Of a stretch of DNA of 64,000 nucleotides, positions 32,017 to 61,391 are shown in pieces; position 1 is the stretch's first letter, and every line of letters begins with the position of its first letter. This stretch comes from Candidatus Levyibacteriota bacterium (GTDB lineage Bacteria; Patescibacteriota; Microgenomatia; Levybacterales; UBA12049). The DNA lies in the NCBI GenBank assembly GCA_003152105.1, contig PLZJ01000002.1, positions 236,257 through 300,256 on the forward strand. The letters are read 5' to 3'. Below the pieces are notes generated by a model. That model searched no databases. It was given only the letters and a program-made list of their open reading frames with translations, and was not told the origin of the DNA. A program made the position numbers and the translations under genes.

Positions 32017-33327
32017 TTAAAGGATAAAGAAAAGTAATCCTCCAACGATTGTCAGTACTGCACCAGCAACTCCGATACCAAGTATCTGTTCACCTGGGCC
32101 AGTTGCTGCAACGGTTGGGGTTGCTGTTGGAGGGTTACTTGATGTTGCTGTTGGATTTGCTGCTTTAGGTCCACCTGGAGTTGCTGTAGGTCCACTAATT
32201 GTGATTGTCTGTGTGCAATTTCCTGGAACGCTTACTGCTCCAGATGAATCAGTAAAGGTTACAGATGCATTATAGGATCCACCCGCTGCATAAGTATGGG
32301 CAAGCTGAGCTGAGCCGGCAACACTTTGAGCAGTTGTAGGCGTAGGTGTTTCAGTTGGTGTATCTGTTGGTGCTGATGTTGTAGGTGTTGGTGTATCTGT
32401 TGGTGCTGATGTTGGTGTATCGGTTGCATTATTTGAAATAGATACGTCCTGAACTGTTCCATCTCCAAAGTTAAATGTTGCCTTTGAAAGTGTAGCGCTT
32501 CCTTGAGGTTGGCCATTAGCAGTAAATGTTATCGTATAAGGCGCAGTACCGGAAGTGCCAACGTCTGTTGTTAAACTTGAACATACCGGAGGGTTTAGTG
32601 ATGTTGTAGGTGTTGGAGTATCAGTGGGTGTTGCTGCACCTGGAACTAAAGTAGGTGTTGGAGTATCAGTGGGTGTTGCTGCACCGACTGTTGTAGGAGT
32701 AGGTGTATTTGTAAGAGTAGGAACTTGCACATTGCCAATATATAAAGTAGCAGGTTGTGTAGACGCAATGACGCTTGATTCAGGATCTTGATTTTGAGAA
32801 GAGTCAGCTTGAGAAAGCCCTCCAAATGTTACCTGAGTTGATCCACTTACGTTTGGATTTACTAAAAACTTTATGTCTGCGATTTCCGTTTTTGTTGTAA
32901 TAAAATTACTTACACTCGAGGCTGCAAGACGCACAAGAGCGCTTCCAGTACTATTGCTACACGTAGCTTTTGTGACAACATTCGCGAGTGCACCGGTAGA
33001 GTTTATACAGGTTGTGGGATCGGCAACCTGTAGATATTTTGGATTAAAAGTAATTTGTATGGTAACAACAGAAACAGTATTTACCGTCTGTCCGTTTTTA
33101 GGATCTACGAAAATAGGTAGGTCAACTGTATCGTTTGGATTTACATGTTTTATTACCCCGCCATCTGATGATGTACTAGAATCAAAGGAAACAACTGTAG
33201 CCCTAGTAGCACCTGCGCCAGGATGTTGTTGATGGCGTATTAGATAAAGAGTAACCGGTATTGCTACGCCAAGTATTAGTAGAAATCCGAAAAGAAAAAT
33301 TTGCTTTCTGCTTAAGTTTCCAAGCAT
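32017..33327 (-). CDS. Secreted/anchored PT-repeat protein with beta-rich domains
   Basis: N-terminal TM/signal, Ig-like beta-rich segments separated by TDTPTPT-type linkers, and a C-terminal hydrophobic anchor. The coding DNA contains direct tandem repeats. Confidence 0.5.
   Translation of the reverse strand: MLGNLSRKQIFLFGFLLILGVAIPVTLYLIRHQQHPGAGATRATVVSFDSSTSSDGGVIKHVNPNDTVDLPIFVDPKNGQTVNTVSVVTIQITFNPKYLQVADPTTCINSTGALANVVTKATCSNSTGSALVRLAASSVSNFITTKTEIADIKFLVNPNVSGSTQVTFGGLSQADSSQNQDPESSVIASTQPATLYIGNVQVPTLTNTPTPTTVGAATPTDTPTPTLVPGAATPTDTPTPTTSLNPPVCSSLTTDVGTSGTAPYTITFTANGQPQGSATLSKATFNFGDGTVQDVSISNNATDTPTSAPTDTPTPTTSAPTDTPTETPTPTTAQSVAGSAQLAHTYAAGGSYNASVTFTDSSGAVSVPGNCTQTITISGPTATPGGPKAANPTATSSNPPTATPTVAATGPGEQILGIGVAGAVLTIVGGLLFFIL
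32330..32700. repeat. Intragenic direct tandem repeats encoding TDTPTPT linkers
   Basis: Two units starting ggtgttggagtatcagtgggtgttgctgcacc at about 32608 and 32662. Related ggtgtatctgttggtgctgatgtt units at about 32363-32425. Confidence 0.5.
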
Positions 33328-33441: not shown

Positions 33442-33468
33442 TTAGCAGTCACTTTCTTCTAGTGATAT
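33442..33468 (+). promoter_or_regulatory. CIRCE-like operator upstream of groES (TTAGCAGTC-N9-TAGTGATAT)
   Basis: Same 9-N9-9 architecture and nearly the same left arm as the element upstream of hrcA. The right arm is more degenerate. Confidence 0.45.
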
Positions 33469-44413: not shown

Positions 44414-44442
44414 TTGACATCAATTGGCAGTCATGATATATT
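44414..44442 (+). promoter_or_regulatory. Sigma-70-type promoter of the hrcA operon (TTGACA-17-TATATT)
   Basis: TTGACA at 44414-44419, a 17-nt spacer, and TATATT at 44437-44442. The -10 overlaps the CIRCE element. Confidence 0.5.
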
Positions 44443-44450
44443 AGTGCTAA
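44424..44450 (+). promoter_or_regulatory. CIRCE-like HrcA operator (TTGGCAGTC-N9-TAGTGCTAA)
   Basis: 9-N9-9 inverted repeat. Three mismatches to the canonical TTAGCACTC-N9-GAGTGCTAA. Located just upstream of hrcA. Confidence 0.6.
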
Positions 44451-44484: not shown

Positions 44485-45216
44485 ATGCACGATTTAACAC
44501 AAAGACAGGTAGAAATTTTAAAAAGTTTAATAGAAGAATATATTAATACTGCTGAAGCAGTAGGTTCCGAAACACTTGAGAAAAAATATAACCTTTCAGC
44601 ATCTCCAGCGACAATTAGGAATGAAATGGTTAGATTGACTGAGCTCAATTACTTAAAAAAACCACATACATCAGCAGGCAGAATTCCTACTTCAGAAGGC
44701 ATGAAGTTCTATGTGCAACAGCTAATGCGAGAAAAGGAATTATCTGTTGCTGAAGAGGTTGCCGTAAAGGAAAAAGTATGGGATTCCAGAGATAATATTC
44801 AACGATGCTTACGCGAGGTAACTAAAACATTAGCTGATAAAACTAAAACATTAGCAGTCGCGTCTACAGACGATGGTGAATTAATTATTTCGGGCTATTC
44901 TTATATTTTGGATGCACCCGAATTTTATGATATTAATACAACTAAAATATTGCTTGAAGCAATAGACGAATATAGTTATTTTAGAACTATATTTTCTCAA
45001 TTTTTAGGCGATGCGGAAGTGCATGTTTTGTTAGGTGCAGATTTAGGAGAGCGACTTAAGGGTCCATATGGAGTAGTATTTACCGGTTTTGAAACGCCAA
45101 TGAGACTAAAGGGAGATATTGGAATAATAGGTCCATCTCGACTTAATTTTCCATCGGTGGTACCAATGGTTAGATATTTTGGAGAGTTAATTGAAGAAAT
45201 TGCAAAAGGGTGGTAA
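44485..45216 (+). CDS. hrcA: Heat-inducible transcription repressor HrcA
   Basis: N-terminal winged helix (QRQVEILKSLIEEYINTAEAVGSETL...SPATIRNEMVRLTELNYL) and a HrcA C-terminal domain. Located upstream of grpE-dnaK. Confidence 0.8.
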   Translation: MHDLTQRQVEILKSLIEEYINTAEAVGSETLEKKYNLSASPATIRNEMVRLTELNYLKKPHTSAGRIPTSEGMKFYVQQLMREKELSVAEEVAVKEKVWDSRDNIQRCLREVTKTLADKTKTLAVASTDDGELIISGYSYILDAPEFYDINTTKILLEAIDEYSYFRTIFSQFLGDAEVHVLLGADLGERLKGPYGVVFTGFETPMRLKGDIGIIGPSRLNFPSVVPMVRYFGELIEEIAKGW

Positions 45217-45701
45217 TAACTATGGCTAAAAATACAACGAAAACAAAACAAGAAGATACGGATAATCATCAAAATCAAGCTACGATTGAAGAACTTGATG
45301 CAAAATGTCAAGATTTGGAAGAAAAATATAAGCGTGCTTTAGCGGATTACCAAAACTTAGAAAAAAGAGTCAGGGAAGAAAAAGTACATTGGATTTTGGC
45401 AGCCAATAAAGAGTTAATTCAGAGAATGCTGCCAGTTTTAGACACTTTATTGTTAGCCTCAAAGCATACAGATGATCAAGGAATTAAGATGACAGTTACA
45501 CAATTTATACAAGCATTAGAGAATGAAGGAGCAAAACGAATAAAAACAGAAGGTGCAACATTTGATCCTAATACAATGGAGGCCGTTGAAATAGTTGAAG
45601 GTGAAGATAATAAAGTAATAGAAGAAATTCGTCCTGGATTTGAATTAAACGGGGCAGTAATTAGACCAGCGCAAGTTAAAGTTGGCAAGGTCCAGAATTA
45701 A
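45210..45701 (+). CDS. grpE: Nucleotide exchange factor GrpE
   Basis: ALADYQNLEKRVREEK (like GrpE ADFENYRKR), a coiled-coil, and a C-terminal beta domain. Overlaps hrcA by 7 nt. Confidence 0.8.
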   Translation: MVITMAKNTTKTKQEDTDNHQNQATIEELDAKCQDLEEKYKRALADYQNLEKRVREEKVHWILAANKELIQRMLPVLDTLLLASKHTDDQGIKMTVTQFIQALENEGAKRIKTEGATFDPNTMEAVEIVEGEDNKVIEEIRPGFELNGAVIRPAQVKVGKVQN

Positions 45702-45757: not shown

Positions 45758-47647
45758 ATGGGAAAAATAATTGGAATAGATTTAGGTACAACAAATTCAT
45801 GCGTTGCAGTAATGGAAGGTGGTTCACCAAAGGTAATTCACTCTGCTGAAGGTAGAAACACAATTCCTTCTGTTGTTGATCCAAAAACTCACGTTGTTGG
45901 AGATATCGCAAAAAGACAACTTGTCTTAAAGCCAAAAGAAACTATTTATTCAATTAAAAGATTAATGGGAAAGAAATTCTCTGATAAATCTGTCCAATTT
46001 GATATGAAATGGCTTCCTTACACGGTAAAAGCAGGTAGAAATGATATGGCAGTTGTTGAAGTAGACGGCAAAACATATACCCCTCAGGAACTTTCTGCAA
46101 TGATTCTCCAAAAAATTAAAAGTGATGCCGAAGCATATCTTGGTAGTAAAGTGACACAGGCTGTTATCACAGTACCTGCGTATTTTGATGACTCTCAAAG
46201 ACAAGCAACAAAACAAGCGGGAGAAATTGCTGGCCTTGAAGTACTTCGAATTATTAATGAACCAACTGCTGCTGCACTTTCGTACGGTCTTGATAAAAAG
46301 AATGCGCATACTGTAGCTGTATATGATTTAGGAGGCGGAACGTTTGATATTTCAGTCTTAGAACTAGGTGAAGGTGTATATGAAGTAAAGTCCACAAATG
46401 GAGATACGCATTTAGGAGGAGATGACTTTGATCAAGCTATTGTAACTTATATTGCGGACGAATTTAAGAAAGAACACAATGTAGATCTTCGTTCCGATCC
46501 ACAAGCGCTCCAAAGATTAAGAGAAGCAGCTGAAAAAGCAAAAATTGAATTATCGTCCGCAGCTGAAGCTCAAATAAATCAACCATTTATTACGGTGACT
46601 CCTAACGGACCATTGCATTTAACAATGACATTAACTCGTTCAAAACTCGAACAAATCGTAGACGATCTAATTCAAAAAACTATTAAACCTCTTCAGTTAG
46701 CAATTAAAGATGCAAAAATAAATGTAAAAGACATCGATGAAATTGTAATGGTAGGTGGAATGACTAGGATGCCAAAGGTTATCGAAACAGTTACTAAATT
46801 CTTTGGCAAAGAACCAAACAAATCAGTTAATCCAGACGAAGTAGTTGCAGTAGGAGCAGCAATACAAGGTGGAGTTCTCGGAGGAGAAGTAAAAGACGTA
46901 TTGCTTTTGGATGTTACCCCTCTTACGCTTGGTATTGAAACTTTAGGAGGCGTTTCTACTCCTCTAATTGAAAGAAATACGACAATTCCTTCTTCAAAGT
47001 CTCAAACATTTTCTACAGCAGCAGATAATCAAACCCAAGTAGAAATTAACGTACTTCAGGGCGAGAGACCTATGGCAGCTGATAATAAAACATTAGGTAG
47101 ATTTATCTTAGATGGTATTCCACCTGCTCCAAGAGGAGTGCCTCAGGTTGAAGTAAGCTTTGATATCGATGCGTCAGGAATATTGCATGTAAAAGCAAAA
47201 GATAAAGCTTCAGGGAAAGAACAATCTATCAAAATTACAGGATCAACTGGCTTGTCTAAAGAAGAAGTAGAAAAGATGCAAAAAGATGCAGAAGCACACG
47301 CACAGGAAGATGAGGAAAAGAAAGGGCAAGTTGAAGCGAGAAATCAAGCAGATTCATTAATATTTACTGCAGAAAAAGCGCTTAAGGATGGAGGAGATAA
47401 GGTGCCTGCTGAAATAAAGTCAGAAGTGGAAGAGAAAATAAAATCAGTAAAAGATATTTTAGCAACTGGCAGTAAGGAAGATTTAGAGTCAAAAACAAAA
47501 GAACTATCTGAATCACTTTCAAAAATAGGACAAGAAGCATATAGTCAAACAGGTCAACCCGAAGAAATAGAAAAAGAGGAAAAAGAAGGAAAAGAGGAGA
47601 CTTCTACTGGTAGTGAGAATGTGCAAGAAGGTGAAGTAGTAGAGTAA
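45758..47647 (+). CDS. dnaK: Chaperone DnaK (Hsp70)
   Basis: [21 protein letters not shown], and a full Hsp70 architecture. AGGAG sits 9 nt upstream. Confidence 0.95.
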
Positions 47648-47714: not shown

Positions 47715-48602
47715 ATGGCAGCTTCACAAGATTATTATAAAATTTTAGGCGTTACTAAAGGCGCTACTGCTGAGGAAATAAAACGAGCATATCGTAAGCT
47801 GGCTCTTCAATATCATCCTGACAAAAATTCTTCTAAAGAAGCGTCTGAAAAATTCAAAGAAGTAAGTACTGCTTACGAAGTATTGTCTGACACTCAAAAA
47901 CGTCAAACATATGATCAGTTTGGGTCAGCTGCATTTGAGCAAGGAGGAGCTGGACAAGGGCCATTTGGAGGTTTTAATGGTGGCAATAATGCAGGAGGAG
48001 GATATGGGCCATTTACCTACTCCTATTCTACTGGCAACGCAAGTGATTTCGGAGGATTTGCAGATCCTTTTGAAATTTTTGAGCAATTTTTTGGAGGTTC
48101 ACAATTTAACTCTCGAGCAAGACGTCAAATGTATTCAATTACCATACCATTTTTAGAAGCCGTAAATGGTGTTGAAAAGAACGTAAGCATAAATGGTAAA
48201 GATCAAAAGATTAAAATACCAAAAGGTGTGAATAGTGGCTCAAGAATTCGATTCGACAATTTCGATATTGTAGTCGAAGTTATGCCCGACAAACGTTATA
48301 AACGTGAAGGCGACGATGTTATTACTGAGGAAAGCTTAACGTTTTCCCAGGCTGCATTGGGAACTCAGCTTAAAATAGAAACACTTGAAGGAAGCGTAAC
48401 GCTTAGAATTCCACCTGGCACGCAGCCAAGCACTGTTATGCGTTTACGAGGAAAAGGTGTGCCTCATGTTCGTGGAAATGGTAGGGGAGATCATTATGTT
48501 AGGCTTTCTGTAGCAGTTCCTAGAAAAATAACAAGAAAACAAAGAGAGCTGCTCGTAGAATTCGACAAAGAATCATCCTCAGGTTCTTCGCATTGGTTTT
48601 AG
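47715..48602 (+). CDS. DnaJ-like co-chaperone lacking the cysteine-rich zinc-finger domain (type II/CbpA-like)
   Basis: DYYKILGV...[14 protein letters not shown]-domain, a G/F-rich region, and two C-terminal beta domains. No CxxCxGxG repeats. Confidence 0.75.
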
Positions 48603-51969: not shown

Positions 51970-53028
51970 ATGGATACTAGTGCATTTCAAAAAATCAACG
52001 ATTTACTCGAAAAGAACGATAAAGTAGCTATCGCTGTGGGTAAAAATCCTACTCTGGATGATATGGCAGCAGCCTTATCTTTATACCTCAGTTTTAAGCA
52101 AATTAATAAACAAGTTACTATTGTTTCTCCTACTAACCCAATAGTTGAGCTTTCAAATTTAGTGGGAATAGATAAAGTTAAATCGTCATTAGAAGGTGAT
52201 TCTGGAGATTTAATTGTTTCTTTTCCTTATCAAGATCGCCAAATAGAGAAAGTTTCTTATAACTTAGATGAAGAAGCTCACCAGCTACACATTATTGTAA
52301 AAGCAGGAGAAGCTGGATTACAGTTTGATGAAAAAGATGTGCAGTTTCGTAGAAGTGGTGGTTTACCAAAATTACTATTTATTTTAGGTACACAACGTCT
52401 AACAGAACTAGAATCGCTATTTGACGCAAACGCTTTGAAAGAAACAACAGTAGTTAATATTGATAATAATCAAGCAAATCAACGATTTGGTGAAATAGTT
52501 ATGGTTTCACCAGACTTTTCATCTTTGTCTGAACAAATAGGTAACTTATTAATGGTTCTTGATTTACCTATTGATCAAGATACTGCTCAAAATTTATTAG
52601 CTGGAATATCACAAGCTACTGAAAATTTTCAAAGTCCACAAACTAGCTACATAGCGTTTGAAATTGCAGCAATGCTTATGAGAAAAGGAGCAAAGAGAAC
52701 TCAAGGATATGCTCAAGCACGTGTTCAGCAACAAAATAGAGCTCCTTTTTCATCGCCACAGCCACAGCCACAACCACAACGACAGTCACCAGCTGAATTA
52801 CAGCAACGTTTATCTCAGGAGTTAAAAGCTATGCAACAACAACGAGGAGAACCAAGACGTGCGCAATTTCCTCAATCTAGACCAAATCAAAATACTATGC
52901 CAAATTCTCCACAACAGATAAATCCTATTCAACAACCAGTTCGTGGATCAGTACAAAATGATCAACAACCGGAACCACCATCAGATTGGTTAGAACCAAA
53001 AGTATATAAAGGCTCAACACCTCTTTAA
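51970..53028 (+). CDS. DHH/DHHA1-family (NrnA-like) protein with degenerate catalytic motifs and Q/P-rich C-terminal tail
   Basis: Aligns with the NrnA pattern, but motif I is LDDMAAA and the DHH motif is replaced by DNN (NIDNNQANQRFGEIVMVSPDFSS versus IDHHPN..GDLLWVDTSASS). The C-terminal roughly 100 aa are Q/P-rich low complexity. Sits at the position between infB and rpsO that nrnA occupies in Actinobacteria. Confidence 0.5.
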   Translation: MDTSAFQKINDLLEKNDKVAIAVGKNPTLDDMAAALSLYLSFKQINKQVTIVSPTNPIVELSNLVGIDKVKSSLEGDSGDLIVSFPYQDRQIEKVSYNLDEEAHQLHIIVKAGEAGLQFDEKDVQFRRSGGLPKLLFILGTQRLTELESLFDANALKETTVVNIDNNQANQRFGEIVMVSPDFSSLSEQIGNLLMVLDLPIDQDTAQNLLAGISQATENFQSPQTSYIAFEIAAMLMRKGAKRTQGYAQARVQQQNRAPFSSPQPQPQPQRQSPAELQQRLSQELKAMQQQRGEPRRAQFPQSRPNQNTMPNSPQQINPIQQPVRGSVQNDQQPEPPSDWLEPKVYKGSTPL

Positions 53029-53107
53029 AAAGTATAAGAAAGTTAAAGTATTTCCACAGACCATAACGTCTAAAGAATAATAAAATCACAATTTTAGATT
53101 CATATGC

Positions 53108-53136
53108 TTGCTTGAAGAAGGGGAACTTGCTATAAT
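53108..53136 (+). promoter_or_regulatory. Extended -10 promoter (TGcTATAAT) ending 6 nt before the rpsO start codon
   Basis: TTGCTT-17-TGCTATAAT. The ATG is at 53143, implying a leaderless or near-leaderless transcript. Confidence 0.4.
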
Positions 53137-53142
53137 ACTACT

Positions 53143-53412
53143 ATGTCATTAGATCCAACACAAAAACAAGACATTATAAAACAGTATCAAACCGTTGATG
53201 GGGATACTGGGAGTCCAGAAGTGCAAATAGCACTGCTTTCAACTAGAGTTAGTAGATTGACCGAGCATTTGAAATTACACGCTCATGATGTGCATAGTCG
53301 TAGAGGATTACTATCTATGATTGCAAAACGCAGACGTCTCATTTTCTTTTTATCAAAACTTGATAAGGCAAGAGCCTCATCGATATCCAAGAAAGTCGGA
53401 CTCAAAGACTAA
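53143..53412 (+). CDS. rpsO: 30S ribosomal protein S15
   Basis: MSLDPTQKQ...GDTGSPEVQIALLSTRVSRLTEHLKLHAHDVHSRRGLL matches S15 closely. Confidence 0.85.
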   Translation: MSLDPTQKQDIIKQYQTVDGDTGSPEVQIALLSTRVSRLTEHLKLHAHDVHSRRGLLSMIAKRRRLIFFLSKLDKARASSISKKVGLKD

Positions 53413-55673
53413 TGAAACAACCCCAAAAATTAATCGAAAAAAGCACTGAAATAGGAGGCAAAAAACTTACTCTACAAACAGGTAATCTAGCTTCTCAAGC
53501 AACTGCAGCTGTACTTGGAAGACTAGGAGATACTATGGTGCTTGTTACGGTAACTGCCGGATCAAAAACTGACCTTGGGTACTTTCCGCTTTCTGTCGAA
53601 TTCGTAGAGAGACTGTATGCTGGCGGTAAAATTAAAGGAAGTCGATGGGTTAAGCGAGAAGGTAGACCTTCAGACGAAGCTGTTTTATCTGGAAGACTGA
53701 TCGATCGATCTATTAGACCACTATTTCCAAAAGATTTCAAAAATGACGTACAAGTTGTATCAACAGTATTATCAGTTGATGGCGAGAATGAACCAGATAT
53801 CTTAGCAATGATTACTGTTTCTGCAGCTTTGGCAATGTCAAATATTCCATGGAATGGACCAATAAGCGCTGTGCGTATGGGTCTTACGAAAACTTCGGAT
53901 GAAAAGGTAGAATATAAAATAAACCCAGGTGGCGCAGAACTAGAACTATCAGAACTAGATTTAATCGTATCCCAAACAGAAGATAAAACTTTGATGCTAG
54001 AAGCTGGCGCAAAACAAGTTTCTGAAGCTCATATGCTTGAAGCCATAAAGCTAGCGCAAGTTGAAAATAAAAAAATGATTTCATTCATAAAAGAATTTGC
54101 AAAAGAAGCAGGATCAGAGAAAATCAAAGTTGAACCCGACACTATGTTACTGGAGATGAAAGCAGTTGTTGAAAAATCTTACAGTAGCGATATAGATAAG
54201 CTTATTGAGGCTCGAATTAATAAAGATTCCTCAAAAGAGCTACAAGATGAACTTATTACCAGAATTTTTGAAGAAGAAAACATGCGAAACCCCGAGGGAA
54301 AATATGATAAAAAATCAATCGCAAAAGCAGTAGAGGCAATATTTTTCAAAAAAATAAGACAAAATGTTCTAAAAAAAGGTATTCGACCTGATGGAAGAAA
54401 GGTTGATGAAATTAGACCAATCAGTGCAACAGTTGGCCTACTACCTAGAACACACGGTTCAGCAATTTTTCAAAGAGGAAATACGCAAGTATTAACCGTA
54501 GTAACATTAGGTTCTCCTAGGCTTGAATTGCTAATAGAATCTGCTGACGGTGAAGAAGCAAAACGCTACATACATCATTATTCAATGCCACCTTATTCTG
54601 TAGGTGAAACGGGAAGAATGGGAACTCCAAGTAGACGCGAAATCGGTCATGGAGCATTGGCAGAACGTGCCTTAGTAGGAGTAATTCCTTCTCAGGAGAA
54701 TTTCCCCTATACAATCAGAGTTGTGTCTGAAGTATTGTCTTCAAATGGTTCAACTTCAATGGCATCTACTTGCGGATCGACTCTAGCATTGATGGATGCA
54801 GGTGTACCAATAATTTCCCCTGTATCAGGAATATCAGTAGGCATGATGTCTGATGGAGATGATTATGTATTACTTACTGATATTCTCGGACTGGAAGATT
54901 TTTCAGGTGATATGGATTTTAAAGTTACTGGAACTGATAAAGGTATTACTGCTATTCAGCTAGATGTAAAAATACCGGGTTTAACAATTAAGCAAGTTGA
55001 AGAAACGCTAAAGAAAGCATATACAGGACGAATGTTTGTTCTAGAAAAAATGCTTGCTATATTGCCTAAATCAAGAACTGGTGTATCTGAATATGCTCCA
55101 AAAATAGAATTAGTAAAAATACCAGTTGAAAAAATTGGTGAACTTATTGGTCCAGGAGGGAAAACAATTAAAAATATTATTGCTCAAACCGGCGCAACTG
55201 TTGATGTTGAAGATGATGGTAATGTGGCAATATCTGGAACAGACGAGGCAAATGTTAAAAAAGCAGTAGATTGGGTAAAATCATTAACTCGAGAAGTGGT
55301 TATGGGTGAATCTTTTGAAGGTGAAGTTAAAAGAATATTACCATTTGGTGCATTTGTTGAAATTCTTCCTGGTAAAGAAGGAATGGTTCATGTGTCTCAA
55401 ATGTCAAATGATTTTGTAAAATCTCCTTCAGATGTAGTAAAAATTGGGGAAAAAGTAAAAGTTCGTGTAATTGAAATAGATGAACAAGGGAGAATAAATC
55501 TCAGCATGAAATCAGGCGACGCTCAAAGTTCTGGCGAACAACGCCCACAGAGAGAACAAAGAACTGAAAATCGAGAATTTCGTTCAAACGACCATCCATT
55601 ATCAAGACAACTTCGAAGAGAAAAAATGGAAAGTCAAAAATTACAACCTCGAGGAAGAAAAACTCATTATTAA
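53412..55673 (+). CDS. pnp: Polyribonucleotide nucleotidyltransferase (PNPase)
   Basis: Two RNase PH domains, then KH (GPGGKTIKNI) and S1 domains at the C-terminus. Overlaps the rpsO stop. Confidence 0.9.
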   Translation: MKQPQKLIEKSTEIGGKKLTLQTGNLASQATAAVLGRLGDTMVLVTVTAGSKTDLGYFPLSVEFVERLYAGGKIKGSRWVKREGRPSDEAVLSGRLIDRSIRPLFPKDFKNDVQVVSTVLSVDGENEPDILAMITVSAALAMSNIPWNGPISAVRMGLTKTSDEKVEYKINPGGAELELSELDLIVSQTEDKTLMLEAGAKQVSEAHMLEAIKLAQVENKKMISFIKEFAKEAGSEKIKVEPDTMLLEMKAVVEKSYSSDIDKLIEARINKDSSKELQDELITRIFEEENMRNPEGKYDKKSIAKAVEAIFFKKIRQNVLKKGIRPDGRKVDEIRPISATVGLLPRTHGSAIFQRGNTQVLTVVTLGSPRLELLIESADGEEAKRYIHHYSMPPYSVGETGRMGTPSRREIGHGALAERALVGVIPSQENFPYTIRVVSEVLSSNGSTSMASTCGSTLALMDAGVPIISPVSGISVGMMSDGDDYVLLTDILGLEDFSGDMDFKVTGTDKGITAIQLDVKIPGLTIKQVEETLKKAYTGRMFVLEKMLAILPKSRTGVSEYAPKIELVKIPVEKIGELIGPGGKTIKNIIAQTGATVDVEDDGNVAISGTDEANVKKAVDWVKSLTREVVMGESFEGEVKRILPFGAFVEILPGKEGMVHVSQMSNDFVKSPSDVVKIGEKVKVRVIEIDEQGRINLSMKSGDAQSSGEQRPQREQRTENREFRSNDHPLSRQLRREKMESQKLQPRGRKTHY

Positions 55674-55694
55674 TTTATTGCTCGTATTTTTTAG

Positions 55695-56855
55695 ATGGTG
55701 TATGATGGATTAATGGATCCACAGCAAACTAATCCTCCAGAAAATAATAACGATCAAGATCGAAATACAAACGCAAAATCAACTATGACTTCGCAGAGTG
55801 ACCCAAATAATATCCTAAACGAGTTAAAACATAAAATTGATAACGCAAATCTACCTTTAGAGTTAAAAAATAACTTGAATGAGCGAATAGCACGCCTTGA
55901 GTTATTGCGAAGTGGTAACGGAATTTCTACATCAAGTTATATTATTGAACTAGAAAATAGCATAACTTATATTAATTGGGTCTTATCACTTCCGTGGTTT
56001 GCGAAAAGTGAAGATTTGCTCGATCTTGTTCGAGCAAAACAAATTTTAGACAAGAATCACTACGCATTGCAAAATGTTAAGGACAGAATATTAGAATATT
56101 TAGCAGAAATTATATTAAATGCAAAAAATCATTCAGATGGAATTATACGATCTCCGGTTCTTTGTCTCATAGGGCTTGCAGGTACTGGAAAAACAACGCT
56201 CGGAGAGTCTATTGCGCAAAGTTTAGGAAGAAAGTTTGAGAGAATACCTTTTGGTGGAATGGGTGATGCAAGAGCTTTGAGAGGACAATCTCGAGCATTC
56301 CCAGACGCGGAACCTGGTTACATTATTAAAAAACTAGCCCATGCTAAAACAAAGAATGCTGTTATTTTATTAGATGAGTTAGATCGTGTAGCTGATTCAG
56401 CTCGAACTGATATTATGGGTGTACTCGTAGAATTGTTAGATCCAGAGCAAAATAAAGCATACACTGATCATTATATAGATTATCCGTTTGACTTATCTAA
56501 TGTGCTATTTGTTGCCACTGCAAATAATACGACAAATATTGCCACTGCAGTACTCGATAGATTAGAGATAATTCAAATGCCATCATATACCGATGAGGAA
56601 AAAGTTGTTATAGCTAAAAATTATCTATTTCCAAAATTACGAGCGCAAACAGGACTTGCGGTAAATCAATTAGAGATTGCCGATGATGTATGGGAAGGTA
56701 TTATCCGACCATTAGGATTTGATTCTGGTATTCGTAGTTTGCAACGTACAATTGAAGGAATTTGTAGAAAAGTTGCAAGAGAGATAGTTGAGGGAAAAAT
56801 TCAAACAATGGTAATTACAAACGGAAATCTTAAGGAATTTCTACAAACGTGGTAA
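55695..56855 (+). CDS. Lon-family AAA+ ATPase module without N-terminal (LAN) domain and without S16 peptidase domain
   Basis: YINWVLSLPW, ILDKNHYALQNVKDRILEYLA, Walker A GLAGTGKTTLGESIAQSLGRKFERIPFGGMGDARALRGQSRAF, Walker B AVILLDELDRV, VELLDPEQNKAYTDHYIDYPFDLSNVLFVATAN and SYTDEEKVVIAKNYLFPK are collinear with the central ATPase part of Lon. The protein ends where the protease domain would begin. The N-terminus is a short N/Q/D-rich tail. Confidence 0.65.
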   Translation: MVYDGLMDPQQTNPPENNNDQDRNTNAKSTMTSQSDPNNILNELKHKIDNANLPLELKNNLNERIARLELLRSGNGISTSSYIIELENSITYINWVLSLPWFAKSEDLLDLVRAKQILDKNHYALQNVKDRILEYLAEIILNAKNHSDGIIRSPVLCLIGLAGTGKTTLGESIAQSLGRKFERIPFGGMGDARALRGQSRAFPDAEPGYIIKKLAHAKTKNAVILLDELDRVADSARTDIMGVLVELLDPEQNKAYTDHYIDYPFDLSNVLFVATANNTTNIATAVLDRLEIIQMPSYTDEEKVVIAKNYLFPKLRAQTGLAVNQLEIADDVWEGIIRPLGFDSGIRSLQRTIEGICRKVAREIVEGKIQTMVITNGNLKEFLQTW

Positions 56856-58528
56856 AATACCCTGATATGCATAATTCGCTTTCTCTTATTCCATTAGGTG
56901 GTGTTGGTGATGTAACAAAAAACATGTACGTGTACGAAATGGAAGACGAAATCCTTCTTATTGATTGTGGATTAGGGTTTGCTAACGACAGTATGCCAGG
57001 TGTTGATTTACTACTACCAGATATTTCTTATTTGCAAAGTGTTAATAAAAAAATTGTGGGTATGGTTATTACTCATGGACATGAAGATCATATGGGAGGA
57101 TTGCCTTTTATATTGCCTCAATTGCCAAATTTTCCTATTTATGCTTCACCGCTCACTGCAGCGCTTGCAAACGAAAAGCTTAAAGAATTTGGTAATCCGA
57201 CAAAAGTTCAAGCTATATCATTTGCCCAAAAAGAACTAACTATCGGAAAATTTACAATTTCACTTATTCGCGTAACGCACTCAGTACCAGATACTGCACA
57301 CATACTCATTAAAACTCCAGTAGGATATTTTTACCATGGTAGCGATTTTAAATTTGATTTGACTCCTGCAGATGGTAAGAAAACCGATTTGCTAAAAATT
57401 GCCAGAACTGGGGAGTTGAATGTAAGATGCTTACTTTCAGATTGCTTAGGTTCTGAACGGGAAGGACATACACCTTCAGAAATAACATTGACAGAAAATA
57501 TAGAACAAGAAATGAGGATTTGTGAAGGGAAGTTTATTATAACTACCTATTCGTCTAATATTTCACGACTTAACCAAGCAATAGAAGTTGCGGAAAAAAT
57601 GGGAAGACAAATTTGTTTTATTGGTAGATCATTAATTAGAGCAAAAGAAGTTGCCAAAAATTTGGGCTATTTAAAGATAAAAGCAGGAATTGAGGTAACA
57701 CCAGAGCAAGCGAAGAAAATTCCAGATAACAAACTTATGTTACTTGTCGCAGGTTCTCAAGGTCAACAAGGTAGTGCAATGAATAGGATCGCTGAAGATG
57801 AACATAAAGATATTAAGCTTCGAAGTAAGGATGTAGTATTATTTTCATCTGATCCTATTCCCGGAAATGAAATTGCAGTGAATATGTTAATAGATGCAAT
57901 TGTTAAAAAAGGTGCAAAAGCAGTGTATTCTGATTCAGCAAGTAAGTATCATGTTTCAGGGCATGGAGCTGCCTTGGAACTTAAACTGCTTATGTCTTTA
58001 GTAAAAGCAAAAACAGTGCTTCCAATTGGAGGAACTTATAGACAAATGGTAGTTTATAAAAAATTAGCAAAAGAACTAGGATATGAAGATAAAAATATTT
58101 TACTTCTTGAAGATGGGCAGGAAATGATATTTACTAATACCTCAATGCATCTTGGTAAAAAAGTACCATCACGCTTTGTATATGTTGATGAAATAAGCGG
58201 GGAAGAGGTTGAAAGTTTTATTTTACGTGATCGAAAAAGGATTTCAAAAGAAGGCATAGTAATTGCTATGACACAAATTGATTCTGAAACTGGTAATATC
58301 TTAGAAACTCCAGATGTAATAATTCGTGGATTCAAAGTTGATTCGCAAGCTCACGCAAAATTAGTTGAACATATCACAAAAGATTTAAAAAGTAATATAG
58401 GTAAACGAAAAACGCGAATTATTGATTGGATTCATATCAGAAAGCAAATTAGTGACATAGTAGAAAAGCAATTTTTTAAGCAGTTTAAGAGAAGACCTCT
58501 TGTTTTGCCAATAGTTGTTGAGGTTTAG
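56849..58528 (+). CDS. rnj: Ribonuclease J (metallo-beta-lactamase/beta-CASP)
   Basis: LIPLGGVGDVTKNMYVYE...LLIDCGLGF, ITHGHEDHMGG, and beta-CASP and C-terminal domains. Overlaps the Lon-like gene by 7 nt. Confidence 0.85.
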   Translation: MVKYPDMHNSLSLIPLGGVGDVTKNMYVYEMEDEILLIDCGLGFANDSMPGVDLLLPDISYLQSVNKKIVGMVITHGHEDHMGGLPFILPQLPNFPIYASPLTAALANEKLKEFGNPTKVQAISFAQKELTIGKFTISLIRVTHSVPDTAHILIKTPVGYFYHGSDFKFDLTPADGKKTDLLKIARTGELNVRCLLSDCLGSEREGHTPSEITLTENIEQEMRICEGKFIITTYSSNISRLNQAIEVAEKMGRQICFIGRSLIRAKEVAKNLGYLKIKAGIEVTPEQAKKIPDNKLMLLVAGSQGQQGSAMNRIAEDEHKDIKLRSKDVVLFSSDPIPGNEIAVNMLIDAIVKKGAKAVYSDSASKYHVSGHGAALELKLLMSLVKAKTVLPIGGTYRQMVVYKKLAKELGYEDKNILLLEDGQEMIFTNTSMHLGKKVPSRFVYVDEISGEEVESFILRDRKRISKEGIVIAMTQIDSETGNILETPDVIIRGFKVDSQAHAKLVEHITKDLKSNIGKRKTRIIDWIHIRKQISDIVEKQFFKQFKRRPLVLPIVVEV

Positions 58529-58578
58529 TGAATTCAAATTGACTTGTCGAATACTTTTATTCGCCATATAATACTAAT

Positions 58579-60690
58579 ATGCCCAGACATAGAAGACGTA
58601 GAATTAAATTAAAGCTACAAACTAAAACTATATACTCACTGTTTGCTTTCGGTTTGTTTATTAGTGGTGTGCTCGCATTACTTTCTTTTACCAGAAGCGG
58701 ACAGTCATTTACGTATGCTAATGATGAATTGTCAAAATATTTTGGTTGGGCGAGCATTTTATTCGCTTTTGCATTAATGCTTCTTGCATTTTTATTCCTT
58801 CAGCTTAAAAAATTTGTCTTGTCCAAACCCAATGTAATACTTGGTTATTTGGTAACATTTATTTCTCTGATGGGCATATCACATAGCGGATTAATTGGGT
58901 TTAACTTATTTGAAACCTTAGCTGCATTTTTAACTCCTCTTGGGACTGGAGCTGTCTTTTTGGCAGGAATTTTTGTAGGCTTAATTGTTTTATTTGATAC
59001 ATCAATTGATGAAATCATTGGTTTTTTCTTTACTATTGTTAATAATTTATACAGATTTTTTCCAAAATCAATACTTTCTCTATTTAAATCAAAACCTAAA
59101 CGATTAACTGATAAACCATTTAAAATTAAGGGTGGTCAAAAAGATTTTAGTGCATCTAACTCACAAAATAGTAATGATATGCAAATTAAAAAAGAGCAAG
59201 TATTAATTGCAGACAAGTTGGTTTCTAATGCAACGATGCTTGGAGGTGGTGTATGGGAATATCCCCCATTGTCATTGCTCTCAGAAGTACCAGGTCAAAA
59301 AGCAGAGCGCGGTGACGTAAAACGTATCGCAAGCGTTATCGAAAAAACGCTCCAAAGTTTTGGAATAGAAGCAAGAGTAGCTGAAGTCAATTTAGGTCCT
59401 GCTGTTACACAATATGCACTTGAAATAGCTTTAGGTACAAAGGTTTCAAAAATTACATCACTTGCGAATGATTTGGCGCTTGCTACAGAAGCTCCAACTG
59501 GTCAAATTAGAATTGAAGCACCAATTCCAGGGAGAAATTTAGTAGGCATCGAAATTCCTAATAGATCTCTTGAAGTTGTTACTCTTCGTACAATGCTAAG
59601 TTCTGCATTAATGCAAAAAAATAAATCTAAATTAGTCGTATCAATGGGGTTAGATGTTTCTGGTACTCCAGTTGTGTCTGATATTTCAAAAATGCCTCAT
59701 GTACTCATAGCGGGAACTACTGGATCAGGTAAGTCTGTTATGATGAATTCTATTATTTCTTCCTTACTTTTTCGAGCATCTCCAGCAGAAGTAAAACTAA
59801 TTTTAGTTGATCCTAAACGAGTAGAATTTACTGCATATAATAATATACCTCATCTTATGACTCCGGTAATTGTTGAACCAGAAAAAATAATTTCTGCACT
59901 TAAGTGGGCCATGGGAGAAATGGATAGGAGATATAAAACATTTGCGGAACGTGGTGTTAGAAATATTGATTCATACAATGAATTATCTGGTTTTCAAGCT
60001 TTACCATATATAGTAATAGTTATCGATGAACTCGCTGATTTAATGATGTTTGCACCAGTTGAAGTCGAAGATGCCATTGCAAGAATTGCTCAAATGGCAA
60101 GAGCTACAGGTATTCATTTAGTAATCGCAACACAACGTCCATCAGTTAACGTTATAACGGGTTTGATAAAGGCAAATATACCTGCTCGTATTGCGTTCAA
60201 TGTTTCCTCAATGATTGATTCTAGGGTCATTATAGACGGTCCAGGGGCTGAAAAATTGCTTGGTCGTGGAGATATGTTATACATTCCACCAGAGCAAGCA
60301 AAGCCAACTAGAATACAAGGTGCATTTGTATCTGAAAAAGAAATAAAGAAGCTCGTTGAATTCCTTAGGCAACAAGGTGGTCCAGTTGAATATACAGAGG
60401 AAGTATTAACGCAGCCAATAATGTCTCGCAAGGGTACAGGTATAACTAGTGCTAATAGTGGTAGCGGAAGAGATGTGCTTTTCGAAGAAGCAATTCGTGT
60501 AGTATGCCAACATGATCGTGCGTCTGCATCATTATTGCAAAGACGTCTTAAGGTAGGATATGCCAGAGCCGCGCGAATTTTAGATGAACTTGAAGAGGCA
60601 GGTATTGTTGGCCCTGGAGAAGGAGCTAAACCAAGAGAAGTACTTACTCAAAATGCTGAAGACATTATTAATAGTCTGCACACACAATAA
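58579..60690 (+). CDS. ftsK: DNA translocase FtsK/SpoIIIE
   Basis: N-terminal TMs, motor domain with Walker A IAGTTGSGKSV, Walker B IVIVIDELADL, and a C-terminal winged-helix gamma domain. Confidence 0.85.
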   Translation: MPRHRRRRIKLKLQTKTIYSLFAFGLFISGVLALLSFTRSGQSFTYANDELSKYFGWASILFAFALMLLAFLFLQLKKFVLSKPNVILGYLVTFISLMGISHSGLIGFNLFETLAAFLTPLGTGAVFLAGIFVGLIVLFDTSIDEIIGFFFTIVNNLYRFFPKSILSLFKSKPKRLTDKPFKIKGGQKDFSASNSQNSNDMQIKKEQVLIADKLVSNATMLGGGVWEYPPLSLLSEVPGQKAERGDVKRIASVIEKTLQSFGIEARVAEVNLGPAVTQYALEIALGTKVSKITSLANDLALATEAPTGQIRIEAPIPGRNLVGIEIPNRSLEVVTLRTMLSSALMQKNKSKLVVSMGLDVSGTPVVSDISKMPHVLIAGTTGSGKSVMMNSIISSLLFRASPAEVKLILVDPKRVEFTAYNNIPHLMTPVIVEPEKIISALKWAMGEMDRRYKTFAERGVRNIDSYNELSGFQALPYIVIVIDELADLMMFAPVEVEDAIARIAQMARATGIHLVIATQRPSVNVITGLIKANIPARIAFNVSSMIDSRVIIDGPGAEKLLGRGDMLYIPPEQAKPTRIQGAFVSEKEIKKLVEFLRQQGGPVEYTEEVLTQPIMSRKGTGITSANSGSGRDVLFEEAIRVVCQHDRASASLLQRRLKVGYARAARILDELEEAGIVGPGEGAKPREVLTQNAEDIINSLHTQ

Positions 60691-60758
60691 ATATGATAGT
60701 GTTTTAGAATCCAAATTACTTGCTTTCTGATTCATGATTATATTTGAAAATTTCAATC

Positions 60759-61391
60759 ATGATAACAATAGGTCAGATACTTAAAAAAGAAAGATTAAAG
60801 AGGAAACTATCACTTACTGATGTTGAGATTGCAACTAAAATTAAATCTAGTTTTCTAGATGCAGTTGAAAAAGGACAGTACGATAAATTACCATCAAGCG
60901 CCTATGCTTCTGGGTTTGTTACTAGTTACGCACAGTTTTTAGACATTCCTAAATCACAAGCCATCGGTTTGTTTAAAAGAGAGTTTGATGAAAAAAGTGC
61001 ATTTAAAGTATTACCAAAAGGTTTTACGAATGAAAAAGATTTTCAACTTCATAGGAGAAGATTTTCTGCACCAGTTTTTGGAATTAGCTTAGTTGTAATA
61101 GCAATTTTAGCATATCTTTTTTTCCAGTACCGTTATGCAATTATTAATCCCCCATTATCCGTTTATACCCCAAAAGATAACTCTATCATAACCTCTCAAA
61201 ATATTATGGTAAAAGGTAGTACTGACCCTAATGCTACGGTAGTTGTTAATACCCAAGAAGTTGCGGTTGATGATAATGGATATTTTTCCACTACTATACC
61301 AGTTTTTCCCGGAACCTCAGTAGTTCATATCGTTGCAACTAACCGATTCGGTAAAGTATCCACAGTTGATCGTAATATAACCGTAAAATAA
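60759..61391 (+). CDS. RodZ-like cytoskeleton-associated protein (HTH_25 plus TM plus C-terminal domain)
   Basis: IGQILKKERLKRKLSLTDVEIATKIKSSFLDAVEKGQYDKLP is a RodZ-type HTH, followed by a TM helix and a beta-rich C-terminal domain. The ORF-track start at 60744 is a TTG, and the ATG at 60759 is preferred. Confidence 0.6.
   Translation: MITIGQILKKERLKRKLSLTDVEIATKIKSSFLDAVEKGQYDKLPSSAYASGFVTSYAQFLDIPKSQAIGLFKREFDEKSAFKVLPKGFTNEKDFQLHRRRFSAPVFGISLVVIAILAYLFFQYRYAIINPPLSVYTPKDNSIITSQNIMVKGSTDPNATVVVNTQEVAVDDNGYFSTTIPVFPGTSVVHIVATNRFGKVSTVDRNITVK

Follow-up and report, generated by a model that had tools for sequence, protein, structure and literature searches.

A stand-alone Lon-type AAA+ ATPase of Microgenomates, encoded between pnp and rnj in Levybacteria and beside groES-groEL in a sister clade

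Introduction

Lon is by definition a fused ATPase and protease. The LonA enzymes, among them E. coli Lon and human LONP1 (MEROPS S16, TIGR00763), are the closest described relatives of the protein presented here, which is encoded at 55695..56855 (+ strand, 386 aa from the first ATG) of a 64,000-nucleotide stretch of contig PLZJ01000002.1 from a Candidatus Levyibacteriota bacterium, the stretch as a whole being referred to below as the window. The protein shares with LonA the N-terminal domain (NTD) three-helix bundle, the AAA+ alpha/beta core and the Lon lid, with ~40-45% identity over ~340 residues and with identical Walker A/B, sensor 1, arginine finger and sensor 2 residues. It differs from LonA in having neither the LAN (N) domain nor the S16 Ser-Lys peptidase and in scoring below the TIGR00763 cut-off. 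In its family the Tyr-Ile pincer and the first flanking Arg of pore loop 1 are replaced (Q-S-[RK]-x-[F/S]-P-[DE]-A-E), as are the G-D-P of pore loop 2 and the P-P of Walker A.

The Lon-like protease LonC of Meiothermus taiwanensis has lost one of its two enzymatic activities, with a chaperone function reported (PMC3391209, PMC13069640). LonC is the mirror image of the window protein, having kept the protease with a dead ATPase module, whereas the window protein has no protease and an ATPase site that appears to be live. The stand-alone LON N-terminal-like protein LotP of Liberibacter physically binds GroEL (PMC5404198), and so resembles the window protein both in being a free-standing counterpart of a single Lon module and in being linked to GroEL. 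However, LotP resembles the N-terminal substrate-binding domain, precisely the part absent from the window protein, its own authors regard it as a separate lineage, and the GroEL link of the window family is one of gene adjacency only. LONP1's chaperone-like activity offers a further parallel, with the Lon ATPase preventing aggregation in a manner that needs ATP hydrolysis and does not need proteolysis (PMC8368198), and with cooperation with Hsp70/Hsp60 described (PMC7801493, PMC4669791), the first of these reports concerning mtHSP70. LONP1 is, in contrast to the window protein, a full-length protease with an N-domain. The isolated E. coli Lon AAA+ construct in PDB entry 6n2i covers nearly the same segment as the window protein (target-normalised TM 0.84, sequence E = 6e-76), although it is an engineered fragment rather than a natural, independently evolving gene with family-specific substitutions.

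Domain architecture

The gene at 55695-56855 encodes a genuine stand-alone LonA ATPase module, without LAN and without S16 peptidase. Pfam matches on the 386-aa protein comprise AAA (residues 156-294) and Lon_lid (318-368) and nothing else, with no match to Lon_C (E <= 0.01) or LON_substr_bdg (PF02190). The NCBIfam model of endopeptidase La, TIGR00763, aligns over model positions 249-571 of 795 and yields 339.8 bits against a cut-off of 608.05, with NF008053 giving 272.3 bits against a cut-off of 891. A phmmer search of the PDB places residues 41-383 in a collinear alignment with E. coli Lon 251-579 (E ~1e-75), the C-terminus lying at the position equivalent to E. coli Lon ~579-584, in the ATPase-protease linker. 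Locally built Lon_C and LAN profiles have no match in a six-frame translation of the whole 64-kb window, in which this is the one Lon-type gene, and PADLOC defence models return generic AAA matches only (<=33 bits) for the ATPase. The protein is thus clearly Lon-derived, and falls outside the LonA proteases in its peptidase, its LAN domain, its score against the curated cut-off and its pore loop.

A sequence-only reading of this DNA had described a Lon-type ATPase without LAN and protease domains, collinear with the Lon ATPase module and preceded by a short N/Q-rich tail, and the profile searches, the alignment and the predicted disorder of the tail bear this description out. An S16 domain detected in the open reading frame (ORF) by profile search, or a Lon half encoded alongside in relatives, had been named as findings that would speak against it; neither was found.

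The AlphaFold2 model, calculated for the monomer (pLDDT 81.4, pTM 0.74), comprises a disordered tail, a helical region, an alpha/beta core and a lid, with Foldseek matching it to LonA ATPase modules only (TM 0.70-0.84). The N/Q-rich tail (residues 1-34, 55695..55796, pLDDT <50) occupies alignment columns that are mostly gaps or poorly conserved among orthologues, and varies in length and sequence across the family. As orthologues begin MDP and M7 is invariant among them, Met7 (55713, + strand) is the probable true start, giving a protein of 380 aa. The N-terminal helical region (residues 37-145, 55803..56129, + strand) corresponds to the end of the LonA long helix and the three-helix bundle (NTD-3H) and aligns with E. 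coli Lon 251-345, with helices modelled at 37-50, 55-75, 80-97, 111-121, and 126-145. Both blocks highlighted by the sequence-only reading lie in this region, namely YINWVLSLPW (residues 92-101) and VKDRILEYLA (residues 128-137). Residues Y92, W95, P100, and W101 are invariant in orthologues, and the LonA counterparts Y294 and W297 have been described previously (PMC7239648). The AAA+ alpha/beta nucleotide-binding subdomain (residues 150-296, 56142..56582, + strand), in which the model contains both strands and helices, is followed by the Lon-type lid, the alpha-helical small AAA+ subdomain (residues 297-368, 56583..56798, + strand).

A short Lon-ATPase family

The window protein belongs to a family of similarly short proteins. 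In a word-indexed search covering 5.8 billion proteins, the 120 homologues listed are 357-451 aa long, share 62-73% identity with the window protein and contain AAA and Lon_lid only. They carry the NCBI name 'AAA family ATPase' (Levybacteria, Patescibacteria) or the JGI name 'ATP-dependent Lon protease', the latter being misleading for these proteins because they have no peptidase domain. Homologues of 340-450 aa number in the hundreds across Microgenomates (Levy-, Roizman-, Woese-, and Dojkabacteria, with one member from the last), a search seeded with a member of 50% identity recovers the family in Roizmanbacteria, Woesebacteria, and the 'Microgenomates group', and a scan of one genome per species finds relatives encoded in 303 genomes. 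The gene seems to belong to the core set of Microgenomates. Members share a signature that the window protein fits, consisting of a length of ~340-450 aa, AAA and Lon_lid only, a C-terminus at the linker, and the pore-loop motif Q-S-[RK]-x-x-P-[DE]-A-E-P-G.

The stop codon lies 0-3 residues from the C-terminus of the window protein in 78 of 79 orthologues, and a C-terminal boundary at the ATPase-protease linker that is kept to this extent must be ancient. When 1.84 billion cluster representatives were searched exhaustively with HMMER, the nearest clusters were likewise more short proteins (nine clusters noted individually, and others), none of them with Lon_C or LAN. Ordinary LonA of ~800 aa is found only at ~40-45% identity to the window protein, with the nearest named full-length Lons coming from Anaerolineales, Vampirovibrionia, Deltaproteobacteria, and a eukaryote, and not from Patescibacteria. 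Neighbour-joining analysis of 172 AAA modules groups the 15 short representatives in a single clade, with the window protein inside it. The short family is real and ancient, and is neither a truncation nor an assembly artefact.

Members of the family characteristically bear low-complexity tails that differ widely in length. In five longer members the extensions at the N- or C-terminus consist of low-complexity Q/N/P/S/T tails, and fusions of the Rosetta-stone kind, which might have revealed a partner, are ruled out, since the extensions are tails of this type rather than partner domains. One such tail, in the Levybacteria-type member P0272/P0124, is an N-terminal extension of 320-360 aa made almost entirely of Q/P-rich imperfect repeats (QPQQPQVQPVQFGQQ...), and the pnp-lonAAA-rnj-ftsK context described below, where lonAAA denotes the ATPase gene, is kept despite it.

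Searches of the full-text literature returned nothing on a Lon ATPase without a protease in Patescibacteria or the candidate phyla radiation (CPR), and no paper tying Lon-type ATPases to RNase J. The stand-alone Lon-ATPase family of Microgenomates is unnamed, uncharacterised, and undescribed in the literature searched, and the expectation that such a protein would be unusual was well placed.

A second unusual group, located outside the window, emerged from the exhaustive search. In these Lons, which lack LAN, two to three Lon-type AAA+lid modules are arranged in tandem ahead of one S16 domain. There are 21 'AAC' and 6 'AAAC' cluster representatives at 50% identity, in addition to two very long 'ACAC' proteins, and one of the group (P0121) derives from Candidatus Dependentiae. 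Modules of one protein group together in the tree, suggesting internal duplications, and the full-text literature search returned no description of such tandem-AAA Lons. Their position at the top of the search ranking had prompted the idea of a stacked ring, or of the short ATPase as a fission product of a tandem-AAA Lon. The ranking, however, stems from scores summed over modules of 30-41% identity each, and a sister relationship receives 0/100 bootstrap support in the neighbour-joining tree; the idea of an origin by fission was rejected on these grounds.

ATPase site and pore loops

A comparison of motifs between 91 short-family sequences and 57 canonical LonA sequences separates a constrained ATPase site from remodelled pore loops. 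The short family shows 100% conservation of the Walker A Lys/Thr, the Walker B Asp-Glu, the sensor-1 Asn, the arginine finger, and the sensor-2 Arg. Walker A of the window protein reads G-L-A-G-T-G-K-T-T (56172..56198, + strand; LonA form G-P-P-G-V-G-K-T-S), with G160, G163, G165, K166, and T167 present in 100% of short-family sequences and the P-P of LonA changed to L-[AV]. Walker B (L-D-E-L-D, 56370..56384, + strand) provides D227 and E228, sensor 1 is N277 (E. coli N473; 56523..56525, + strand), and the arginine finger is R289 (E. coli R484; 56559..56561, + strand), 100% conserved in LonA also, with sensor-2 R347 located in the lid (56733-56735, + strand). The Tyr/acid pair of the PS1 hairpin (Y260/D262) is the same as in LonA. 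With all active-site residues kept, the protein is predicted to be a catalytically competent ATPase.

Pore loop 1 of the window protein (56280..56318, + strand) reads R-G-Q-S-R-A-F-P-D-A-E-P-G, compared with R-G-H-R-R-T-Y-[VI]-G-[AS]-[LM]-P-G in LonA, and the signature motif given above holds in both clades of the short family, the Levybacteria (Levy-type) and a sister clade (groESL-type). Shin et al. (PMC7239648) describe Y398 and I399 of LonA as a pincer that grips the substrate, braced by R395/R396. The equivalent residues of the window protein are F202/P203 and S199/R200. The pincer Tyr is present in 100% of the 57 LonA sequences, whereas its position is occupied by Phe in 88% of Levy-type sequences, and by Ser in 81% and an aromatic residue in only 2% of groESL-type sequences, such that Phe-Pro or Ser-Pro stands in place of LonA Tyr398/Ile399. 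The acidic residues D/E204 and E206 of the loop are at least 95% conserved in both clades. Column comparison with LonA shows that pore loop 2 (residues 232-243, 56388..56423, + strand) is remodelled also, the invariant G-D-P of LonA being changed to [AS]-D-I followed by an invariant M-G. Given an ATPase site under constraint, an aromatic paddle relaxed or lost, and a new conserved acidic loop, the mode of substrate engagement probably differs from the hand-over-hand threading of Lon. Furthermore, an acidic pore, as predicted from these residues, would be a poor fit for RNA and argues against such a substrate.

Synteny of the ATPase gene

Across the family, no partner locus is as widespread or as tightly conserved as the chaperonin operon. 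In the sister clade, represented by 80 metagenome loci with 47-56% identity to the window protein, groES is the divergent neighbour of the ATPase gene at a distance of ~100-200 nt in 79/80 loci, the exception being a locus without upstream sequence, and neither pnp nor rnj is near the gene in any of the 80. The same head-to-head arrangement with groES-groEL is found for P0273 (50% identity), on the complete Roizmanbacteria chromosome CP065004.1, on a Woesebacteria contig, and for another widespread member, with every other flanking gene differing between four groESL-linked contigs. Other distant members adjoin alaS/UDG or dCMP deaminase/AhpC.

Conservation of the order infB-DHH-rpsO-pnp-lonAAA-rnj-ftsK-rodZ-like is strong in Levybacteria, where lonAAA has rnj directly downstream in 62/71 informative loci (within 4 kb in 69/71) and pnp directly upstream in 45/61 (within 5 kb in 59/61). 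Insertions of 1-5 kb separate pnp from lonAAA in a minority of Levybacteria (nine loci noted individually, and others), and in a relative of 43% identity the same gap holds a DUF2079 gene, an HTH/PIN toxin-antitoxin-like pair, and a DUF4012 gene; the junction seems to be an insertion hot spot. This relative sits between pnp and ftsK without an adjoining rnj. As the ribonuclease context is absent outside Levybacteria, with groESL the neighbour in the sister clade, it is specific to one lineage, and the pnp-lonAAA-rnj arrangement whose conservation in related genomes had been in question holds within Levybacteria and not beyond.

In the window itself, the gene lies between pnp and rnj, as described from the ORFs. 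Downstream of rpsO (53143-53412, + strand), pnp encodes polynucleotide phosphorylase (53412..55673, + strand; TIGR03591, 872 bits) and ends 21 nt from the ATPase ORF, or 39 nt from it with the ATPase start at 55713. The RNase J gene rnj (56849..58528, + strand; TIGR00649, 505 bits, aligned from residue 12) is followed by ftsK (58579-60690, + strand). The GTG at 56849, used by both the ORF and the gene callers, gives the 7-nt overlap with the ATPase gene that had been reported. An alternative ATG at 56867, 11 nt past the ATPase stop, is at least as likely a start, since both RNase J profiles and alignments to orthologues start only at residue 7-13, and with this start the overlap disappears. 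The translational coupling proposed on the strength of the overlap is not conserved, the lonAAA-rnj spacing in Levybacteria ranging from overlap to several hundred nt with a median of ~38 nt. No + strand terminator-like site occurs between pnp and rnj in the window, and a promoter-like site precedes ftsK at 58544-58572; promoter and terminator consensus matches in 52900-60800 are no commoner than in shuffled sequence. The groES-groEL operon of this genome (33499..35461, + strand) lies 20 kb upstream of the ATPase gene.

Regulatory elements

The groES/Lon-ATPase spacer of the sister-clade loci contains a conserved TTGTCAAG-N11-TCTGCTAAT element directly upstream of the ATPase start, with TTGTCAAG present in 69/70 unique spacers and TCTGCTAAT in 64/70. 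It looks like a -35 / extended -10 promoter. The element ends 2-4 nt ahead of the annotated ATG (ATGGAYAAYCAA), which would imply either a leaderless mRNA or a start codon farther downstream, and it occurs in none of 78 Levybacteria upstream regions.

A heat-shock operator of the CIRCE type was considered for the ATPase gene and rejected, with no CIRCE found near 55695 in the window or in the Levybacteria spacers, and weak matches in 6/70 groESL-linked spacers only. The window does contain two CIRCE-like inverted repeats, and only these two. One, at 33442-33468 (TTAGCAGTC-N9-TAGTGATAT), lies upstream of groES (33499), and the other, at 44424-44450 (TTGGCAGTC-N9-TAGTGCTAA), lies upstream of hrcA (44485-45216), which is followed by grpE (45210-45701), dnaK (45758-47647), and dnaJ (47715-48602). 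A nearly identical hrcA-type CIRCE site is present in another of the loci compared (L047).

Other features of the window

Between infB and rpsO lies a 352-aa ORF (51970-53028) with a weak DHH-family N-terminal match (24 bits against a 28-bit cut-off) and a long Q/P-rich C-terminal tail, its position being conserved in most Levybacteria loci. It may be an NrnA-like nanoRNase, in which case RNA-metabolism genes would be plentiful in the cluster nusA-infB-DHH-rpsO-pnp-(lonAAA)-rnj. In the window, groES has as its divergent neighbour a predicted surface protein of 436 aa (32017-33327, - strand), which carries an N-terminal membrane helix, long Thr-Pro-rich repeats (PTDTPTPT), and a hydrophobic anchor at the C-terminus, and which matches PKD weakly; its region has the highest G+C of the window (0.40 against ~0.33). 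Rfam at the gathering threshold reports no family in the 64-kb window (tRNA, rRNA, riboswitch, or leader RNA), no separate tRNA scan having been made.

Discussion

We favour, at a probability of roughly one half, a reading of the window protein as a LonA derivative in protein quality control, one that hydrolyses ATP without degrading proteins and probably forms a ring. It would work alongside GroES/GroEL, and in Levybacteria has been relocated into an inherited housekeeping cluster, where it is probably co-transcribed. We infer its oligomeric state, its chaperone function, and the nature of its clients as follows. The protein would act as a protease-less LonA derivative in which a disordered tail precedes the NTD three-helix bundle, the AAA+ core, and the Lon lid, with retention of the trans-acting arginine finger pointing to ring assembly coupled to ATP hydrolysis. 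Replacement of the Tyr-Ile pincer by the conserved acidic loop x-Pro-[Asp/Glu]-Ala-Glu makes classical threading of polypeptides improbable, and clients, perhaps basic ones, may instead be bound or remodelled at the face of the ring. The protein would thereby serve as a non-degradative chaperone or remodeller beside GroES/GroEL and other heat-shock chaperones. In Levybacteria the gene would be expressed as part of the inherited cluster nusA-infB-DHH-rpsO-pnp ... rnj-ftsK, probably on a common transcript. Taken together, the Lon ATPase more likely manages proteins than degrades RNA.

Several observations weigh against this interpretation. The clade of short representatives has a bootstrap value of only 48/100. 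The lineage to which the window belongs is without the groESL adjacency, and its rnj link (62/71) could signify a lineage-specific function. Because the promoter-like element of the sister clade is no CIRCE and is absent from Levybacteria, the groESL tie shows conserved adjacency rather than co-regulation. Levy-type proteins keep an aromatic Phe (88%) at the pore-loop position, making threading possible in this lineage. Isolated LonA ATPase modules, moreover, tend to oligomerise poorly without the protease ring. Finally, a 2026 preprint places LONP1's chaperone-like activity in its N-domain, independent of the ATPase (bioRxiv 10.64898/2026.05.06.723147), and the domain so credited is absent from the window protein.

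A more specific proposal, which we regard as tentative, is that the family constitutes a Lon-derived, protease-free class of AAA+ chaperones acting as a dedicated partner of GroES/GroEL, for example in handing clients over to the chaperonin or pulling them out of it, and re-wired into the pnp-rnj unit in Levybacteria. Such a class would use an acidic, non-aromatic pore loop in place of the universal aromatic paddle, implying a way of handling substrates other than hand-over-hand threading.

The sequence-only reading had instead seen a Lon-derived remodeller recruited to RNA decay. In this form of the argument, which we consider unlikely, the ATPase of Levybacteria would be a partner of PNPase and/or RNase J, with a part, for example, in the assembly, recycling, or regulation of these ribonucleases or of ribonucleoprotein substrates. 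The gene begins 21-39 nt past pnp, overlaps or nearly abuts rnj, and is separated from neither by a + strand terminator-like site; the frequencies with which rnj directly follows (62/71) and pnp directly precedes it (45/61) in Levybacteria agree with such a role, as does the placement of the 43%-identity relative between pnp and ftsK, and the difference between Phe (Levy-type) and Ser (groESL-type) in the pore loop leaves room for functional divergence. However, pnp and rnj are near none of the 80 sister-clade loci and the neighbours of other members are unrelated, the pnp link is often broken by the 1-5 kb insertions, the rnj spacing is variable, the 43%-identity relative has no rnj alongside, and the conserved acidic pore loop is ill-suited to RNA. 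The genes pnp, rnj, and ftsK also lie near one another in Firmicutes, as on the Bacillus subtilis map, and their order may be inherited, which counts against a dedicated role in RNA decay. The pnp-rnj placement is specific to Levybacteria and does not in itself point to a degradosome role, and with groESL as the neighbour in 79/80 sister-clade loci the chaperonin linkage offers a stronger lead than the degradosome framing.

The other suggestion made from the sequence, a split Lon in which the ATPase ring docks on an S16 (or other) peptidase encoded elsewhere in the genome to form an ATP-dependent protease, is disfavoured by the present data and appears rather improbable. Precedents for a two-component AAA+ protease exist in ClpXP and HslUV, the protein stops exactly at the LonA ATPase-protease linker, and the S16 searches of this genome covered 64 kb of 1.15 Mb. 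Against a split, an S16 domain lies within ~10 kb in 0/172 loci. Lon_C (tblastn and profiles) and LAN (profiles) are both unmatched in the window, in 80 Levybacteria loci (~10 kb each side), and in 12 further contigs, and the gene calls of the sister clade include no peptidase neighbour, whereas the two halves of a recently split gene would normally be expected to remain neighbours in at least some genomes. Additionally, the family has lost the pincer by which substrate is fed into the Lon chamber, most markedly in the groESL-linked clade, and the nearest full-length Lons lie outside Patescibacteria.

Still less probable is a ring that acts on DNA or nucleoprotein, in the manner of Lon DNA binding or of the HCLR relative RuvB, with a role in nucleic-acid transactions or the cell cycle. 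Lon-family ATPase modules bind DNA, as reflected in the title of PDB 6n2i ('DNA-binding ATP-dependent protease La'), and both ftsK and the RodZ-like gene are found downstream of the ATPase gene, in Levybacteria as well as in the 43%-identity relative. In the groESL-type clade, however, ftsK is unlinked, in the window it has an apparent promoter-like site of its own (58544-58572), and acidic pore loops are unfavourable for nucleic acid. A decaying Lon remnant, pseudogene, or assembly artefact without function, suggested by the resemblance to the middle third of a Lon gene, is effectively refuted by conservation, with an identical protein on independent assemblies, 56-73% identity across species with invariant catalytic residues, and termini kept in 78/79 species, and is also at odds with the confident AlphaFold2 model (pLDDT 81.4).

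If the favoured reading of a protease-free quality-control factor is correct, the family would represent a natural, widely conserved Lon motor without recognition domain and protease and with rewritten grip loops, meaning that the Lon ATPase module can exist independently. Chaperone activity of Lon that is independent of the protease is debated, and the family would offer a natural test of it as well. Microgenomates are ultra-small, uncultivated, and probably symbiotic, with minimal proteostasis equipment. As the gene appears to be core in this group, its role would therefore help to explain how proteins are maintained in reduced cells.

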